DNA from: a virus
Taxonomy: Duplodnaviria; Caudoviricetes
Length of the DNA stretch: 64,000 bases
Reading direction: 5' to 3' (one strand)
IMG/VR virus record: IMGVR_UViG_3300020045_011785
Coordinates: 7,973-71,972 of that record
Below, one piece after another: positions 1,081-20,745 of this stretch (the stretch's first letter is position 1; each line of letters begins with the position of its first letter). The position numbers were made by a program, and so were the translations under genes. Under the pieces are notes generated by a model. That model was not told the origin of the DNA. It did no database searches and saw only the letters and a list, made by a program, of their open reading frames with translations.

Positions 1081-1803
1081 ATGAGCGAATTTAAGTTTCC
1101 GACAGAAGTTGTAGAATTACCATCAAAAGGTTTAATCTATCCTCAAGATCACATTTTAAGAAGCGGTAAGGTTGAAATGAAATACATGACCGCAAAAGAA
1201 GAAGACATTTTATCAAACCAAAACTTTATAGAAAAAGGTATTGTGTTGGATAAATTATTAGAGTCTCTAACTTTAGGGAAATTTAATATTAAAGACTTAC
1301 ACGCTGGAGATAAAAATGCTATTTTCGTAGCGGCTCGTATTTTAGGTTATGGTAAAGATTATGAATTTGTTTATAAAGGCAAAAAATATAATGTTGATTT
1401 GTCTCAAATAGAAAATAAAAACTTTGATAATTCTATTGTAGACGAAAAAGGATACGGTACTTTTACTCTTCCACAAACAGAAAACGTAATTAAATTTAAA
1501 TTCTTAAACGAAACTGATAATAGTAAAGTAGAGGAAGAAATAAAAGGATTTGAAAAAATCAATAAAGATAATTCTCGATCTATTACTACAAAATTGATCT
1601 ATACTATAGTATCAATTAATGGAGATTCAGATAAAACAAATATTAGAGGATTTGTAGAAAACCAATTATTGGCTTCTGACTCTAGGGCTTTAAGAAAATA
1701 CATTAATGATATTTCTCCAGATGTAAATTTAACATTTACTACGGAAAGTGGAGAGGAGGCTGCTTTACCTATCGGGTTAACCTTTTTTTGGCCTGACATC
1801 TGA
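1081..1803 (+). CDS. Tail assembly chaperone / baseplate hub assembly protein (T4 gp26-like)
   Basis: LPSKG...MTAKEEDIL motif; lies between tube and tape measure; ends TFFWPDI. Confidence 0.75.
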   Translation: MSEFKFPTEVVELPSKGLIYPQDHILRSGKVEMKYMTAKEEDILSNQNFIEKGIVLDKLLESLTLGKFNIKDLHAGDKNAIFVAARILGYGKDYEFVYKGKKYNVDLSQIENKNFDNSIVDEKGYGTFTLPQTENVIKFKFLNETDNSKVEEEIKGFEKINKDNSRSITTKLIYTIVSINGDSDKTNIRGFVENQLLASDSRALRKYINDISPDVNLTFTTESGEEAALPIGLTFFWPDI

Positions 1804-2068
1804 TATAATTCCTAAGTACAGGGTTAATTTATTTAACCAAATCCACGAAATTGTTTTTCATGGTAAAGGAGGGTATGATTTCCCTACTATTTATAATATG
1901 CCTATTTGGTTACGTAACTTTACTTTTAATAAATTAAAAGCATGGTACGATGATCAACAACCTAAAAATGGGGATGATAGCTGGACTCAAGGTACAGCAA
2001 AAGAAGAAGCATCTAAAAATAAAAAAGTACAAGTACCTACATATATTACAAAGGCATCTAAAAAATGA
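1781..2068 (+). CDS. Chaperone extension frame (gp51/gpT-like), not in ORF track; reached by frameshift or by internal ATG at 1898
   Basis: 95 open codons after TAA 1778-1780 (PFFGLTSDIIPKYRVNLFNQIHEIVFHGKGGYDFPTIYNMPIWLRNF...KK); only ATG is at 1898. Confidence 0.7.
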   Translation, partial: PFFGLTSDIIPKYRVNLFNQIHEIVFHGKGGYDFPTIYNMPIWLRNFTFNKLKAWYDDQQPKNGDDSWTQGTAKEEASKNKKVQVPTYITKASKK

Positions 2069-2099: not shown

Positions 2100-4388
2100 A
2101 TGGCGGATCCTAAAGATATAAAAAATTCAACAAATGAGGCTAAAAATCTAAATTCTACTTTAGAAAGTGCTAAAGAAACATTTGACGAATTAATATTTTC
2201 CGCTCGTGATTTTAGTAATGAGGTAGCTAAATCTGCCAAAGATGTATTTCAAAACTCTGTTCAAGCTTCCGAACAAGCCAAATCATTTAAAACATTAGCT
2301 AGTCTAAGTCGAGATTTTGCTTCCCAAATTGCTGACATATCAGACGGAACAAAATCAATTTCTGATTTAAATAAACTTTTAGTTAAACAAGAAGAAGCTA
2401 AAAAGAAATTTAATATTGAATATCGCCAGGCTTTATCTCAATCTGGAATATCTCAAGAAAAAATCCGATCTATCATTGAGGATCAAGTATCAATATATGA
2501 TGCTTTAAATGATGAATTAGATAACCTTACAGAAGATCAGTTAATTCTTCTTAATTATTACGAAGAACAAACCCAAACATTAATAGACCAAGAAAAAGTT
2601 TTAGGACAAATTGAGGGTAGAGCTAATAATGTAGAAGATGCTTTTGGTGGCGTAGGTAAAGTAGCTGAAGGAGTTGAATCCGCACTTAAAAAAGTAGGAG
2701 CTTCTAAACTTACAGAACGTTTAGGTATATCAGATGCTATAACAAAATCAAGACAGTTTGCCGCTAATCTTACTAAAGGTCAAGAAGGCCCAATTAGTAT
2801 GGGAGCCAAAATAGGCAACCAGTTTAAAGTTTTAGGAAACTTAGCAGGTAATATTGGTGGTAATCTTATTAAGAGCTTAGGTCCTGTTCCTTTAATATTA
2901 GGAGGTATAGTAAAATTAGCTCAATTCTTTGTAGAATCTATGTTTGCTGCTTCTGTTCAAGTAGCAGAATTTCAGCGAGATATGGGTCTTACAGCCGAAG
3001 ATGCTGAGGAATTAAGACAAAGAACATACGATGTTTCACAAAACGCTTCATTACTAGCTGATACTCAAGGTAAAATATTAATTCTTCAAAAACAAATAGT
3101 TGCTGCTCAAAAAGAAGCAAACGCTGCTTTAGGAACTCAAATTGATTTTACTCAAGAATTAGGGAAAGCTGGTCAAGAAATTTTAGTTCAAACCTCTATA
3201 TTAAAAGATAACTTTGGATTAAGCGCAGATTCAATAGGTGAAGTAACTAAAGAATCTCTTAGAACAGGTAAAAGTGTTGAAAATATTACTAAGAAAACTT
3301 TTGGAACAATAGCTGCTGTTGGTTTAGAAAAGAAAGTTTTACTAGATGTTAATAAAATACTAGAAGAAGCTAGTGATATTCAAGGTAATCTTAGATTATC
3401 ATTTAAAGGTAGTACTACAGAATTAGCTAAAGGTGTAGCTCAAGCTAAATTAATGGGTCTTACTTTAAAACAAAATGAAAGTATTGCTCGTAACTTGTTA
3501 AATTTTGAAGATTCCATAGCAGCAGAAATGGAAGCTGAGCTTTTAACAGGTATGGATATTAATCTAGAAAAAGCAAGACAAGCTGCATTAAATGGAGATT
3601 TAGTAGCCGTAGGTCAAGAAATCAATAACCAAGGAATTACCTATAATAAACTTCAGGGAATGAATTTAATCCAAAGAGATGCTATTGCAAAATCTTTAGG
3701 ATTAACTACCGATGAATTAGCTGATACCTTAAAGAAACAAGAAGAATACAACGCTCTTCAAGCTAGAGCTCTTTCAACAGGGGTAAGAATAAATGATATA
3801 GAAAAAAAGAGTTTAAGAGAAATTTTTGAAGAAAATAAAAAAATAGGAAGAAGCGAAGAAGATGTTATTAAAGCTTTAGGTCAAGAATTATATCAAAGAA
3901 AACAAGCAGAAGATGCTCAAACAAGATTTAATAAAGCTTTAGATCAAGCAAAAGAATCCTTTGCTCGATTAGCAGAATCAGGAACAATAGATAAATTTGC
4001 TGATTTTTTAACTAAATTTATAAACAGTGTTAATTCAAAAGGTTTAGCTAGTACTTTATTTTTTGGATTAGATGAACCCGAACCACCAAAACCTGCATCA
4101 ACAGTTAGTAAAACAAATCAAAAACAGATTGATGAGGATAGAGTAATTACCTCCTCTATGGGTGGACTAGATGACTTTATTATGCGTCCAGGCCAACCAC
4201 CCCAAAAGTTTAATAAAGGAGATCTTTTAATTGGTGGTACTAATTTAATGGGTAAAGAAGGAAATAACAGCGAAGTAATTTCTTTACTTAAAGAATTGAT
4301 AACAACTGTTAAACAAGGTGGTAATGTATACTTGGATGGTAATAAAGTAGGTACAGCACTAGCTGTTGCCTCTCATAAAACTCAATAA
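2100..4388 (+). CDS. Tape measure protein
   Basis: 762 aa, helical, Ala/Glu/Lys-rich; follows the chaperone. Confidence 0.85.
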   Translation: MADPKDIKNSTNEAKNLNSTLESAKETFDELIFSARDFSNEVAKSAKDVFQNSVQASEQAKSFKTLASLSRDFASQIADISDGTKSISDLNKLLVKQEEAKKKFNIEYRQALSQSGISQEKIRSIIEDQVSIYDALNDELDNLTEDQLILLNYYEEQTQTLIDQEKVLGQIEGRANNVEDAFGGVGKVAEGVESALKKVGASKLTERLGISDAITKSRQFAANLTKGQEGPISMGAKIGNQFKVLGNLAGNIGGNLIKSLGPVPLILGGIVKLAQFFVESMFAASVQVAEFQRDMGLTAEDAEELRQRTYDVSQNASLLADTQGKILILQKQIVAAQKEANAALGTQIDFTQELGKAGQEILVQTSILKDNFGLSADSIGEVTKESLRTGKSVENITKKTFGTIAAVGLEKKVLLDVNKILEEASDIQGNLRLSFKGSTTELAKGVAQAKLMGLTLKQNESIARNLLNFEDSIAAEMEAELLTGMDINLEKARQAALNGDLVAVGQEINNQGITYNKLQGMNLIQRDAIAKSLGLTTDELADTLKKQEEYNALQARALSTGVRINDIEKKSLREIFEENKKIGRSEEDVIKALGQELYQRKQAEDAQTRFNKALDQAKESFARLAESGTIDKFADFLTKFINSVNSKGLASTLFFGLDEPEPPKPASTVSKTNQKQIDEDRVITSSMGGLDDFIMRPGQPPQKFNKGDLLIGGTNLMGKEGNNSEVISLLKELITTVKQGGNVYLDGNKVGTALAVASHKTQ

Positions 4389-4415
4389 TTTTAATATTTA
4401 TAATAAAATACAACT

Positions 4416-4751
4416 ATGGGACTTTTAGATAAATTAACAACAGGTGGATCAAATCTATCAGCTTATGATGGTACCCAACCCCCAAAATATGATCAAAAAA
4501 CTAATTACCCAACAGATTTAGCTGTTTCTCAATTAGACTTAGATGGCAAAACTCCTAAATCTTATAATCAACAATCTAATTATTTAACTGATTTGGCTGT
4601 TTCTCAATTGGATTTAGATGGTAAACAACCTTTAGCTTACGATCAAAGATCAAACTATGCTACTGATTTAGCTGTTTCACAATTAGATTTAAATGGTTTA
4701 GCACCTAAAGTAAACGGAAAATTACCTTATTTAGATAACTTACCCAAATAA
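4416..4751 (+). CDS. Small tail-module protein with three 25-aa repeats
   Basis: YDQ..NY.TDLAVSQLDL.G x3; late-type motif upstream. Confidence 0.7.
   Translation: MGLLDKLTTGGSNLSAYDGTQPPKYDQKTNYPTDLAVSQLDLDGKTPKSYNQQSNYLTDLAVSQLDLDGKQPLAYDQRSNYATDLAVSQLDLNGLAPKVNGKLPYLDNLPK
4488..4712 (+). repeat. Three tandem in-frame 75-bp repeats
   Basis: Units start at 4488, 4563 and 4638; shared core gatttagctgtttctcaattagacttagatgg. Confidence 0.9.
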
Positions 4752-6829: not shown

Positions 6830-9800
6830 ATGGGAAATATAGTAGGAGAAGGTTTTGCTGAATTTGTAAGAGAACAAGTTGTACAAAGACAAAAAATATA
6901 CGGTTCTTTAAATAGAACTAATGAACAATTATCCTATTTAGAAGCAAGAACAGGTTGGGTTAAGTTAATATCATCCGTTAATGTAGAAAAAAACTTAAGA
7001 AATTTAGGATATACAGGAACCCAATTAGCCGAACAATTTGTTTTATTCAACGGAACAACTAATGAATCACCTACAAAAGGAGCATTAGAAACTTATCAAA
7101 GATATGGTATTTGGAATGGTGAAGGATTAAACAACCTTCAACAAAACTCAGTAAACCAACCTTACAACTATTATGCTTATGGTATGGGAGGTACAGAATT
7201 TGGTTCTCGTCCTATGCCTGGTATAATATCAGCAACTATTAAAACTGAAACTAGAGGTTCTATTAAAACAGCAAATATAAACGTTAGAGCAAATAACAGA
7301 TATCAGTTTGATGTTATTGATACTTTATATATGCGTTTAGGTTTTACTATGTTATTGGAATGGGGTAATAGCTCTTATTTTAATAATAAAGGAAATTATG
7401 TAAGCGATAACCCACATAGTTTAGCTGATGCTTTTTTAACCTTAAAGTATAAAACTACCGGACCAAATGGTAGAGAAGTAATTCAAGATGTAAATTACGA
7501 TAACCTATTAAATATTATTCAATCTAAAAGAGAGGCATCAGACGGTAACTATGATGCTGTTTTAGGTAAAGTAGTTAATTTTAGTTGGACTTTTACTAAA
7601 GAAGGAGCATATGACATTAACATTAAAATAATCAGTTTAGGTGATGTAATTGAATCCTTAAAAACAAACATATTACTTCCAGGATCATCAACAAGTAATA
7701 ATGTTAATGACATACAAGATAAAAGTGCCGCACCAACACCTGATATGGTGATAAAAGAATTTGCTAATTCTAATGAAATAGCTAAAGACTTTTTTAAGGC
7801 ACAACAATCATTAGTTAAAGCAAATGTACTATCAAATGGTACTGCTTTTATAGGGGGACAAGCTAACGACAGTACACAATCTGTTGATTATTTTGCTCAA
7901 CACTATAATGGAACTAAAGATGTTCAATATTATGTTAGATTTGGTCGTTTATTAGAATTAATTCAACAAAAAATTATTTTAAGTGTAAATGATCCAAAAA
8001 TTAAATTACTTAAAATAGATAATGATGTAAAATCAAATATCATTTACATAGCACCTCGACAAGTAAGTAATGATCCTCGAATAACTGTTTTTAATAAACA
8101 ATTTAAAGTTGAAAGCGGAAATATTTACTATTTTGCTGGTAATTGTGAACTTTTTATTATTCAAAAAGGCAAGAATTACTATGGTCAAATAATGAACGCT
8201 TACTTTAACATGGTTTGGGTTCTAGAAAAAATGGAATCTTTAAAAGATGGTAGAGGTAAAACATCGTTGTATGATCTTTTAAGTGCTTTATGTCAGGGAT
8301 GGAATGAATCAACAGGTTACTTTAACCAGTTAGAACCTACTATTGACACAGAAACCAATACAGTTAAAATAACAGACCAATTAATACTTCCTGATAAAGA
8401 CGCATTTTTATCAGAACAAATACGTCCAATAACAACCGCAGAGTTTGATATTTACGGTTACTATTATAATGACAGATCAGGTTCTTATGGAACAGGAGCA
8501 TCTCATGCTGGGTTTATTAGAGATTTTAGTTTTAATACAACTATACCTCCAAACCTAGCTACTATGATAACTGTAGGATCTACAAATAACGGTTATGTGA
8601 TTGGTGAAGATGCAACTGCTTTAAGTAGAATGAATGCTGGGTTAAAGGATAGATTAAAATATGATTTAAAACACGAGGACACTATCCAACAAGAACCAAC
8701 TACATCCTCATTACAAACCGATTATTATACTGCTTTAGATTCATTCAACAGATTTGCTTATGGATTATCATCATATAATCTTAAAAATTATCCTAAATGG
8801 GATGTAGCCGCTATTGAGTCTTTTAAATCTCAACAAGCACAATTTTTAGAATACGATCAAGCAAAACAAACTATAGCAGCAAGAAAAACCAATCCAGATG
8901 CTGCTTCACCAAATTCAGGGTTTTTACCATTTGACTTGTCTTTAACTATGGATGGATTGTCGGGAATGAAAGTTTATCAAAAGTTTACTATTGATGCTTC
9001 ATTTTTACCCTCAAATTATCCTGCATCTTTAGAGTTTATTATTAAAGGTATTTCAAACACTATTCAAAACAACCAATGGACTACTACAATAGATTCTATG
9101 GCTGTTCCTAAAAATCCTTATGGTGCTGAAGCAACTGAAGGAACCCTTTCTGCCGCTTCTAGAGCATCTTCTAGAGGAACACAATTATCTTCACTTGATA
9201 GTAAAAAACCTTTAGTTGAAAAAATTATAGCAATAGCTAAAGAATATGGTATAACAGATAAAAACAGAATGACCGCTATCTTAGCTGTTCCGTACGCTGA
9301 AACCAGATTAACTAATATCACAGAATCTTTTAGTTACACCCCAGACAGATTTAGAGAAATTTTTGGTAAACGTGTAAGAAATAGAAAATTAATTAAAAAT
9401 TGGACTAATGCTGAATTGGCTCCCTATTTGTCTTCTCCCGAAAAAACAGCTAATTTTATTTATGGGCCTGAAGGAGGTAACAATGGTGAGGGATACAAGT
9501 ATAGAGGTAGAGGATTTACACAAATTACTTTTAAAAACAACTACAACGCATTCCAAAAATTATTTCCAAAATATAAAATAAATAAAAACATAGTAACTAA
9601 TCCAGACTCTATAACAACAGATGAGGATTTATCTATTAGATTATTGGTTATAGGTAAGATTGAAGGAAGCTTTGGAAAAAAATTATCTCCAAACACCGAT
9701 TATATCAATACTCCTTCAAATATTTTACTAACACAAAACGGAGGAAGCTCAAAACGTTTAGTTCCATTATCCGAATATGATGCCGGAAGACAATGGGTAA

Positions 9801-20002: not shown

Positions 20003-20236
20003 ATGATGACAATTGAAGAAATTTACCAAGCAGAACAAGAATTAGCTCGTTTTAATGCCCTTATGTCTTACAAAGAAGTTCTTACTCAAGAGGAGTATGA
20101 ATTTTGTAAAGCATGGGATGCCGAAGAAGCTAAAAATTTAGCTCATATTGCTTGGAATAATACTTACTTGAATTTAAATTTATATTCCGAAGTTGATAAA
20201 GAAGAATCTGATTTAAGAAAGGAACAAGGTATATGA
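20003..20236 (+). CDS. Hypothetical protein
   Basis: GTT-ATG at 20003 downstream of promoter 19952-19983; the track start at 19940 runs through the promoter. Confidence 0.6.
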   Translation: MMTIEEIYQAEQELARFNALMSYKEVLTQEEYEFCKAWDAEEAKNLAHIAWNNTYLNLNLYSEVDKEESDLRKEQGI

Positions 20237-20745
20237 GCATGATTCAAGATTGTTTAAAGTGGAAAGCCACTCATGATCCAACACCCCCAAAACCTAACAA
20301 AACTTACAACAAGTTTTTTTGGTGGAGGCGTTATCAAGAACATAAAACGTTGTCTAAGATGGCCTCTATTTGGGACAAAGCCAAAAACGGTGATTATGAT
20401 GTTACCCCGTATTACAAACAACGAGAGTACGAGTTTTGGTTTGAAGAACAGGAAATTGCCAAATACAAATCCAATTATACTGGTTCCTATGAAAATATTG
20501 ATTGGCAAGAACGTCAAATCACAAAATTATATTGGGAGCGTCGCAAACGTTTGCTGAATGATGCAGAACGTGATGAATTGAATCGTTGGACCACGTTTGT
20601 TAAAGATGTCAAAATAAATTTTGGTGGTACTGAAGAACAAATTAAAGAAATGTTTGAATCGTTTGAAGGTACTATACCTGAGTTTTTAGAGGCATATAAA
20701 GAGTCAAGAAACCTTCCAAAAATTCAACCTGTTCCTAAATTTTAA
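20233..20745 (+). CDS. Hypothetical protein
   Basis: 170 aa, ATGA-coupled to the upstream gene. Confidence 0.65.
   Translation: MSMIQDCLKWKATHDPTPPKPNKTYNKFFWWRRYQEHKTLSKMASIWDKAKNGDYDVTPYYKQREYEFWFEEQEIAKYKSNYTGSYENIDWQERQITKLYWERRKRLLNDAERDELNRWTTFVKDVKINFGGTEEQIKEMFESFEGTIPEFLEAYKESRNLPKIQPVPKF

Follow-up and report, generated by a model that had tools for sequence, protein, structure and literature searches.

A candidate programmed +1 frameshift extends a T4 gp26/gp51-type tail assembly chaperone in an environmental phage clade

We analysed a 64,000-nucleotide stretch of Caudoviricetes DNA, hereafter the window, which covers positions 7,973 to 71,972 of IMG/VR record IMGVR_UViG_3300020045_011785. 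The source is a 71,972-base phage contig from a metagenome, rated 44% complete. In the window, a gene for a putative tail assembly chaperone (TAC) of the phage T4 gp26/gp51 type ends at a run of seven T, and a second, conserved coding frame opens at the same run, shifted by +1. This junction is very probably a programmed recoding site of one kind or another. The mechanism that we consider likely is a +1 slip of the ribosome at UUU_U, the rarer, forward-slipping form of a well-known phage frameshift. What decides the case is comparison with related phages, hundreds of which keep the layout. Relatives share the frame offset, the site and the sequence of the extension, and such conservation speaks, at the level of sequence, for a programmed event and not for chance or a sequencing error.

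The zero-frame open reading frame (ORF) at 1081-1803 encodes 240 amino acids (aa) and ends in ACC TTT TTT TGG CCT GAC ATC TGA, with the T run at 1783-1789. TAA 1778-1780 shuts the +1 frame, which from there has 95 codons free of stops (1781-2065) up to TGA 2066-2068, so that entry into it is limited to 1781-1803. Its earliest ATG, GTG or TTG is ATG 1898, 36 codons after GGC 1790. The base before the run is C and the -1 frame ends at TGA 1794-1796. The window site therefore does not fit an X_XXY_YYZ heptamer with a -1 shift, since its -1 frame ends at once and the frame left open is +1. The original prediction, made from the letters of this DNA without database searches, had described the 3' end of the chaperone gene at the U7 run, the opening of the +1 frame after the TAA, its 95 codons, its lack of an ATG before 1898 and the immediate -1 stop. 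Direct reading agrees with it in sequence and coordinates, and adds that GTG and TTG are missing before 1898 too. The elements at the junction are the following.

1081 to 1803, + strand: zero-frame chaperone gene, short form of 240 aa (TAC-N, gp26-like); phrog_150, E 1e-12.
1747 to 1764, + strand: candidate upstream RNA hairpin with a 5-bp stem and an 8-nucleotide (nt) loop, AGAGGAGG; RNAalifold consensus of 28 relatives.
1778 to 1780, + strand: TAA closing the +1 frame just 5' of the shift site; read directly.
1783 to 1791, + strand: putative shift site TTT TTT TGG, two UUU_U tetranucleotides and then a Trp codon; the same in 69 of 71 +1 relatives.
1790 to 2068, + strand: +1-frame extension, 92 codons plus stop, the putative C-terminal domain of a 328-aa long form (TAC-NC, gp51-like); translation, homology and the ratio of nonsynonymous to synonymous substitution (dN/dS).
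1794 to 1796, + strand: TGA stop of the -1 frame; read directly.

At the local GC content of 29.6%, the chance probability of an open frame of 95 codons is about 1.4e-4. Runs of seven or more T occur only four times on the + strand of the window, and TTTTTTTGG is present twice. A second in-frame TTT TTT TGG lies at 20314-20322, within ORF 20233-20745, and is overlapped by a +1-frame ORF of 94 aa (20273-20557). This second site may be a chance occurrence, since its zero frame runs on for 140 more codons.

A scan of IMG/VR retrieved 80 loci with a zero-frame protein 57-68% identical to that of the window. Together with the window, phage immuto and phage Mel-JY01, and minus two without a usable extension or site, these gave 81 scored loci. 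A homologous extension that begins at the same site is found in the +1 frame in 71 of the 81. The site is C TTT TTT TGG CCT in 69 of these 71, including the C before the run; one locus has T8 and Flavobacterium phage immuto has TTT CTT TGG. In 13 of the +1 loci, the window among them, the frame opens 8 nt before the TGG, and the first possible start codon lies 34-109 nt further 3'. The T8 relative (L008, 2173-2232; AAT TTT TTT TGG) has a -1 heptamer in addition to the +1 site, and its -1 frame nonetheless ends immediately at a TGA. In another relative (L036, 2201-2294) the +1 extension stops after 28 codons, while the near-identical contig L033 is intact; an assembly error or a defective copy is possible there.

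In the remaining 10 of the 81 loci it is the -1 frame that carries the extension, and every one of them has T_TTT_TTC or T_TTT_TTT as an in-frame heptamer. They encode the Pro with CCG or CCC and not CCT, by which the TGA that shuts the -1 frame in the +1 group is gone. In a phylogenetic tree, a quick maximum-likelihood version for which the careful search did not complete, the -1 clades are nested within the +1 radiation and adjoin the window. Across the 81 loci, the frame changes in step with three features: the slip motif, the base ahead of the run and the off-frame stop nearby. This covariation of motif and frame offset is hard to explain unless slipping ribosomes read both.

The extension itself behaves as a conserved protein domain. 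Its 95-residue +1 translation had 268 matches, 99 of them at E 1e-10 or better, in a HMMER search against 1.84 billion cluster representatives. Among the 150 matches listed of these 268, nearly all are 37-134 aa long with scattered called starts, and none is an in-frame fusion, which would be expected at about 330 aa. Homology begins at the slip site: tblastn matches start at residue 2, and 20 diverse representatives, when aligned, have FFGL at the site with little or no variation. The conserved core consists of a helix, a GGY turn and then YNMPIWLR, and lies mostly 5' of the Met encoded by ATG 1898. The C-terminus is a conserved basic tail. Pairwise dN/dS in the +1 frame is 0.26 over the 36 codons before ATG 1898 and 0.39 after it; both values are rough, with synonymous sites near saturation. 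They point to purifying selection on codons 1790-1897. This segment had been called protein-like in the original prediction, which would have been contradicted by a segment without conservation ahead of a kept ATG-1898 ORF. The part before the ATG is instead the best conserved of the extension, and the junction alignment that had been proposed as a check returned the +1 offset, the T7 run and the selection on codons. Folded alone, the extension gave a model with a predicted local distance difference test (pLDDT) score of 60, with three helices and a disordered tail, which is too uncertain for a fold search. No family in PHROGs matched the extension alone, and none in Pfam matched the short form, the extension or the fusion.

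The two-frame layout extends to more distant phages with other sites. A marine clade (15 loci of L093-L108) has GGY TTC TTT TGG CCT and a homologous +1 extension, and in 9 of these 15 loci the +1 frame opens only 20 nt 5' of the zero-frame stop. The uncultured 484-kb phage LR756508 has TTT CTA at the site, again with a homologous +1 extension. Bacillus phage HSE3 (L084:3120-3410) and Streptococcus phage GXN1 (L085:3150-3500) have TTC TTT CGT CCC at the overlap and a +1 extension, which in their records is entered as a separate hypothetical protein or absent. The core of their site, UUU_CGU, is also where the influenza PA-X +1 cassette, UCC_UUU_CGU, shifts. The element common to the sites is UUU followed by a pyrimidine: UUU_UGG, UUU_CUU, UUU_CUA and UUU_CGU in the relatives, and UUU_U twice in the window. 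One subgroup of Firmicute phages is without UUU_pyrimidine (TTA TTT AAT CCC in three loci, TTA TTC AAT CCC in one) and may shift at CCC_A. The +1 layout is thus kept at sites with four T or an interrupted run, so that a long homopolymer is not needed. This counts against a sequencing artefact, and also against the view that RNA polymerase slippage is the general mechanism. In two loci, L103 (1201-2300) and L109 (1201-2250), the extension domain is a separate ATG-started ORF just past the chaperone stop, with a new leader of about 25 residues and no slip site. Both are sister to immuto in the tree.

The zero-frame protein probably belongs to a known phage family. It matches phrog_150, which also takes in T4 gp26 (E 6.7e-71) and T4 gp51 (E 2.6e-84). 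The AlphaFold2 model of the zero-frame protein has a pLDDT of 90.5. In BFVD, it matched a 'Baseplate hub assembly protein, bacteriophage T4-like' (E 9.3e-13, template modelling (TM) score 0.64) and the baseplate hub subunit of Bacillus phage SP-15 (E 4.5e-16, TM 0.75). A fold search against 48,161 Protein Data Bank (PDB) chains placed on top 3fgx (Z 6.2), YqbN 3klu (Z 5.5) and the HK97 chaperone 2ob9 (Z 5.4), all aligned to model residues 1-100; these Z values are middling, with the next unrelated row at Z 3.2. The yqbN gene is the xkdN-type chaperone gene of a Bacillus prophage. Foldseek against the PDB returned no match at E 0.001 or better (2ob9 at E 1.1), and a PDB sequence search with the N-domain profile returned nothing relevant. 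The modelled resemblance of residues 1-100 to solved tail assembly chaperones is support, not proof. Taken with phrog_150, the fold matches and the position between the tube and tape measure genes, it supports ORF 1081-1803 as a tail assembly chaperone of the T4 gp26/gp51 family, in line with the original prediction.

Immuto, Mel-JY01, HSE3 and GXN1 have one phrog_150 gene per complete genome and T4 has two: gp26, which is short, and gp51, which continues in frame for about 45 more residues at the C-terminus. PF12322 is found in gp26 as well as in gp51; it had no match to the window protein at E up to 1. A hidden Markov model of the fused proteins against the gp51 and gp26 sequences was not significant. 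With hhalign, the fused profile and the gp51 profile were colinear across the junction (198-281 versus 161-240) at E 0.035 and probability 1.5%, and the extension profile alone was not significant against T4 gp51 or the gp51 family profile. A six-frame search of the window's record and four relatives for phrog_634, the C-terminal part of gp51, found no match. Megablast of the region against isolate phages had no match. A predicted complex of the tail tube with the extension, from two alignments, gave no verdict (score 0.00) and is not used as evidence.

We infer the direction of the slip, +1 rather than -2, its exact codon, its efficiency and the binding partners as follows. ORF 1081-1803 would give the short form of the chaperone. 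In a minority of ribosomes at UUU UUU UGG (1783-1791), the peptidyl-tRNA-Phe would slip by +1 from UUU_U to U_UUU, at either of the two UUU_U positions, with the Trp codon UGG waiting in the A site. Decoding would resume at GGC 1790 and continue to TGA 2066-2068. The product would be a long form of 328 aa, with the conserved helical domain and the basic tail as its extra 92 residues. If the pair works like lambda G/GT and T4 gp26/gp51, the tape measure protein would be coated by the short and long forms alike, and the long form would use its extension to bring in a further component of the tail. The tetranucleotide UUU_Ynn is on record as prone to +1 shifts, with UCC_UUU_CGU as the minimal influenza cassette (PMC5009743), and UUU-UGG is the proposed shift site of YopN-TyeA (PMC5009743, PMC3789692). 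The documented UUU_Y site and the UUU-UGG precedent together favour a +1 slip of the peptidyl-tRNA-Phe. The original prediction had slippage yield a fusion of about 328 aa; the product and the +1 offset are supported, and the choice of +1 over -2 is not one that the sequence can make.

Several points weigh against this reading. A -2 slip reaches the same frame and differs by one extra Phe, which sequence alone cannot separate from +1. The T7 run is strictly kept in the clade of the window though four T are enough elsewhere, so that the run itself may matter, and some room is left for slippage by RNA polymerase. None of the classical stimulators of +1 shifts is present: UGG, and not a stop, is in the A site, and the GGAGG, though like a Shine-Dalgarno sequence, is 23-26 nt 5' of the run and so too distant to act in the manner of prfB. 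The separate ORFs of L103 and L109 suggest that a covalent fusion is not always required or kept. Finally, the extension shows only weak homology (E 0.035) to the C-terminus of gp51, which is suggestive and no more.

Among the alternatives, transcriptional slippage on the T7 run stands best, although we regard it as unlikely. RNA polymerase would drop one U or add two, and some mRNAs would encode the fused 328-aa protein in one frame. It would account for a T7 run that is invariant in 69 of the 71 +1 loci, though the first Phe codon is without +1-frame coding constraint, and A or T runs of at least 7 are known slippage sites (PMC5009743). A homopolymer of at least about 7 does not, however, accompany the two-frame layout throughout: the +1 layout is kept in other clades with a run of four T (TTC TTT TGG, 15 loci), with T3CT3 (immuto) and with TTC TTT CGT. 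Furthermore, the T_TTT_TTC of -1 relatives is a canonical ribosomal heptamer, and slippage by the ribosome accords with the conserved UGG and the UUU_Y context. In the clade of the window, some contribution from RNA polymerase slipping on T7 is possible.

A -2 ribosomal frameshift on U7, as in phage Mu, seems less likely still. It would reach a frame identical to that of +1 with one Phe more, and tRNA-Phe can re-pair perfectly two bases back on U7. The relatives with TTC TTT TGG or TTT CTT TGG re-pair poorly at -2 and well at +1, however, and UUU_Y is a documented +1 site. It is quite improbable that no recoding takes place and that the downstream frame is an independent small gene, read from ATG 1898 (56 aa) or from a non-canonical start. 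Gene callers do give small ORFs here with varied starts, and L103 and L109 do have a separate ATG-started ORF for the extension domain. Yet the best conserved part lies 5' of ATG 1898, with a dN/dS of 0.26, homology begins at the slip site with called starts scattered, the slip motif and the frame offset change together, and an 18-nt motif that precedes other tail genes is absent before ATG 1898. A homopolymer error in assembly or sequencing, with a true T6 and a single in-frame 328-aa ORF, is hardly credible even for a metagenome contig and error-prone homopolymers. Many metagenome samples contributed to the 69 contigs with the same T7, and the genome of a cultured phage, Mel-JY01, has it too; in addition, no in-frame fusion occurs among the 150 listed of 268 matching clusters, and non-homopolymer sites give the same offset. 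The original prediction had itself named a miscounted run of T6 or T8 as the artefact to exclude, and the 69 contigs with T7 and the four-T and T3CT3 relatives with the +1 layout speak against it.

For the favoured +1 slip, a candidate stimulator lies upstream. The hairpin at 1747-1764 is 19 nt 5' of the T run, and its loop contains GGAGG. Compensatory changes were found in 5 of 5 pairs (RNAalifold, 28 relatives), with 90.7% of cells paired, and none of 500 shuffles reached its covariation score; slid controls did not come close either. Of the 52 distinct upstream sequences from +1 loci, 45 have GGAGG at 23-26 nt 5' of the run, compared with none of the 9 from -1 loci. Otherwise, the chaperone genes use GAA over GAG by 1370 to 295. 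The covariation comes for the most part from two subclades, the GGAGG shares bases with the codons of a conserved Gly-Glu-Glu, and at this distance a contact of the prfB type would be out of reach, so that the hairpin remains a lead. A role as stimulator is possible. We put forward only tentatively, as a rather doubtful idea, that the clade provides a natural switch by which one and the same set of codons is recoded at +1 or at -1, with the GGAGG-loop hairpin as a new kind of stimulator in the +1 version. Downstream of the site, RNAalifold found no conserved RNA structure. The fold of the window sequence alone has a hairpin around the T run (z -1.9); it was rejected, being not conserved in relatives.

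Tail chaperones extended by frameshifting are known from lambda, P2 and Mu. The lambda G/GT and P2 E/E+E' shifts are described in Levin 1993 and Xu, Hendrix and Duda 2004, and reviewed in PMC5009743. As in these two, the gene of the window lies between the tube and tape measure genes, and a short and a C-terminally extended form would come from one start, with a second frame that has no start of its own. A conserved slip site at the overlap and an N-terminal domain that may be chaperone-like in fold are further likenesses. The differences are in the shift, +1 at UUU_U in the window and -1 at a heptamer in lambda and P2, and in the zero-frame protein, which at about 240 aa has an extra domain after the chaperone-like first 100 residues. 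Sequence similarity of the window protein to lambda G or T was not found.

T4 reaches two forms differently. Leiman 2010 named gp26 and gp51 hub assembly chaperones (PMC3004832), and the review PMC5009743 still gives T4 as the exception. Passages of PMC10274946 and PMC12846349 credit the recognition of gp26/gp51 as the T4 chaperone pair to Vladimirov, Gautam and Davidson 2022 (Virology 566:9). According to a passage of PMC10274946, some T4-like phages have one short gene and one longer fused gene in place of frameshifting. The suggestion in the original prediction that gp26 and gp51 are counterparts of G and GT is therefore sound but not new, going by those passages. The window protein shares with the T4 pair phrog_150, the predicted fold family, and the scheme of a short form and a C-terminally extended long form. 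T4 gp26 ends a few residues past a conserved FF, and the zero-frame product of the window does likewise. In contrast, T4 has two separate genes with gp51 extended in frame, and the window has one gene that would be extended by recoding. Also unlike the T4 pair, the window protein has no PF12322 match, and the homology of its extension to the gp51 tail is only suggestive.

Other +1 sites offer partial parallels. The proposed site of YopN-TyeA of Yersinia has the same hexamer, UUU UGG, as the window, with a P-site tRNA that re-pairs one base forward. In Y. pseudotuberculosis, mutation of UUU-UGG left the hybrid protein unabolished (PMC3789692), so that this precedent is unsettled. The CUU_UGG of phage immuto resembles the prfB site CUU_UGA; the window differs from prfB in that its A-site codon is not a stop and a Shine-Dalgarno element at 3 nt upstream is missing. 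Among myoviruses, the chaperone of the archaeal virus HSTV-2 has a +1 frameshift (PMC5009743) and that of Pakpunavirus a -1 shift at GTTTTT (PMC12846349). With Mu (-2), these are myovirus chaperone long forms made by recoding, with poly-T slip sites, and as here the argument is an open frame conserved over many genomes. The present case differs in protein family and site, and in having +1 and -1 versions in one clade, in each of which the motif fits the frame.

Events of this kind are familiar, and the link to T4 is already in the literature. What may be new is a +1 shift at UUU_UGG in a large environmental clade, the +1/-1 switch inside this clade, and the upstream element. Recognising the +1 event would allow the correct long form to be annotated for a large group of environmental myophages. 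At present, the records of immuto, Mel-JY01 and HSE3 give the extension as a separate hypothetical protein or mostly miss it, and gene callers yield at least 268 clusters of small ORFs for it with scattered starts. The event also ties the two-gene solution of T4 (gp26, gp51) to the usual one-gene recoding solution. In addition, the relatives form a well-sampled natural series (+1, -1, separate ORF, two genes) in which the direction of slippage can be studied.

The chaperone gene is part of a tail module in the first 4.4 kb of the window, in the order sheath end, tube, chaperone ORF, extension and tape measure. It lies 3' of the tube gene and directly 5' of the tape measure gene, as in immuto, Mel-JY01 and HSE3. 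The tube protein is 70-96% identical across the related IMG/VR loci and 60% in phage immuto. No tRNA genes were found within the window. The neighbouring features are listed below.

2 to 463, + strand: tail sheath gene, 3' part; PF17482, E 1.5e-12; phrog_10581, E 1.3e-45.
510 to 998, + strand: tail tube gene; phrog_4542, E 5.8e-24; weak PF06841 match.
1057 to 1074, + strand: 18-nt motif ahead of the chaperone gene; same or near-same copies before other tail-module genes.
2100 to 4388, + strand: tape measure gene, 762 aa; weak PF20155 match; homologue annotated as tape measure in phage immuto and phage HSE3.

The 18-nt motif is AT-rich (TAATATTTATAACAAAAT or near copies) and lies at 477-494, 1057-1074, 2076-2093 and 4392-4409, where it ends 6-15 nt 5' of the start codons of the tube, chaperone and tape measure genes and of the next gene. 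It has 10 matches in the window, versus 1.7 expected. The motif is present before each independent tail-module gene checked, though not before ATG 1898. It is probably a late promoter or a leader element of the tail module. The next gene after the tape measure gene, an ORF of 111 aa at 4416-4751, contains a unit of about 27 residues that is repeated in tandem, in three copies, each of which closes with a conserved motif of the TDLAVSQLDL type.

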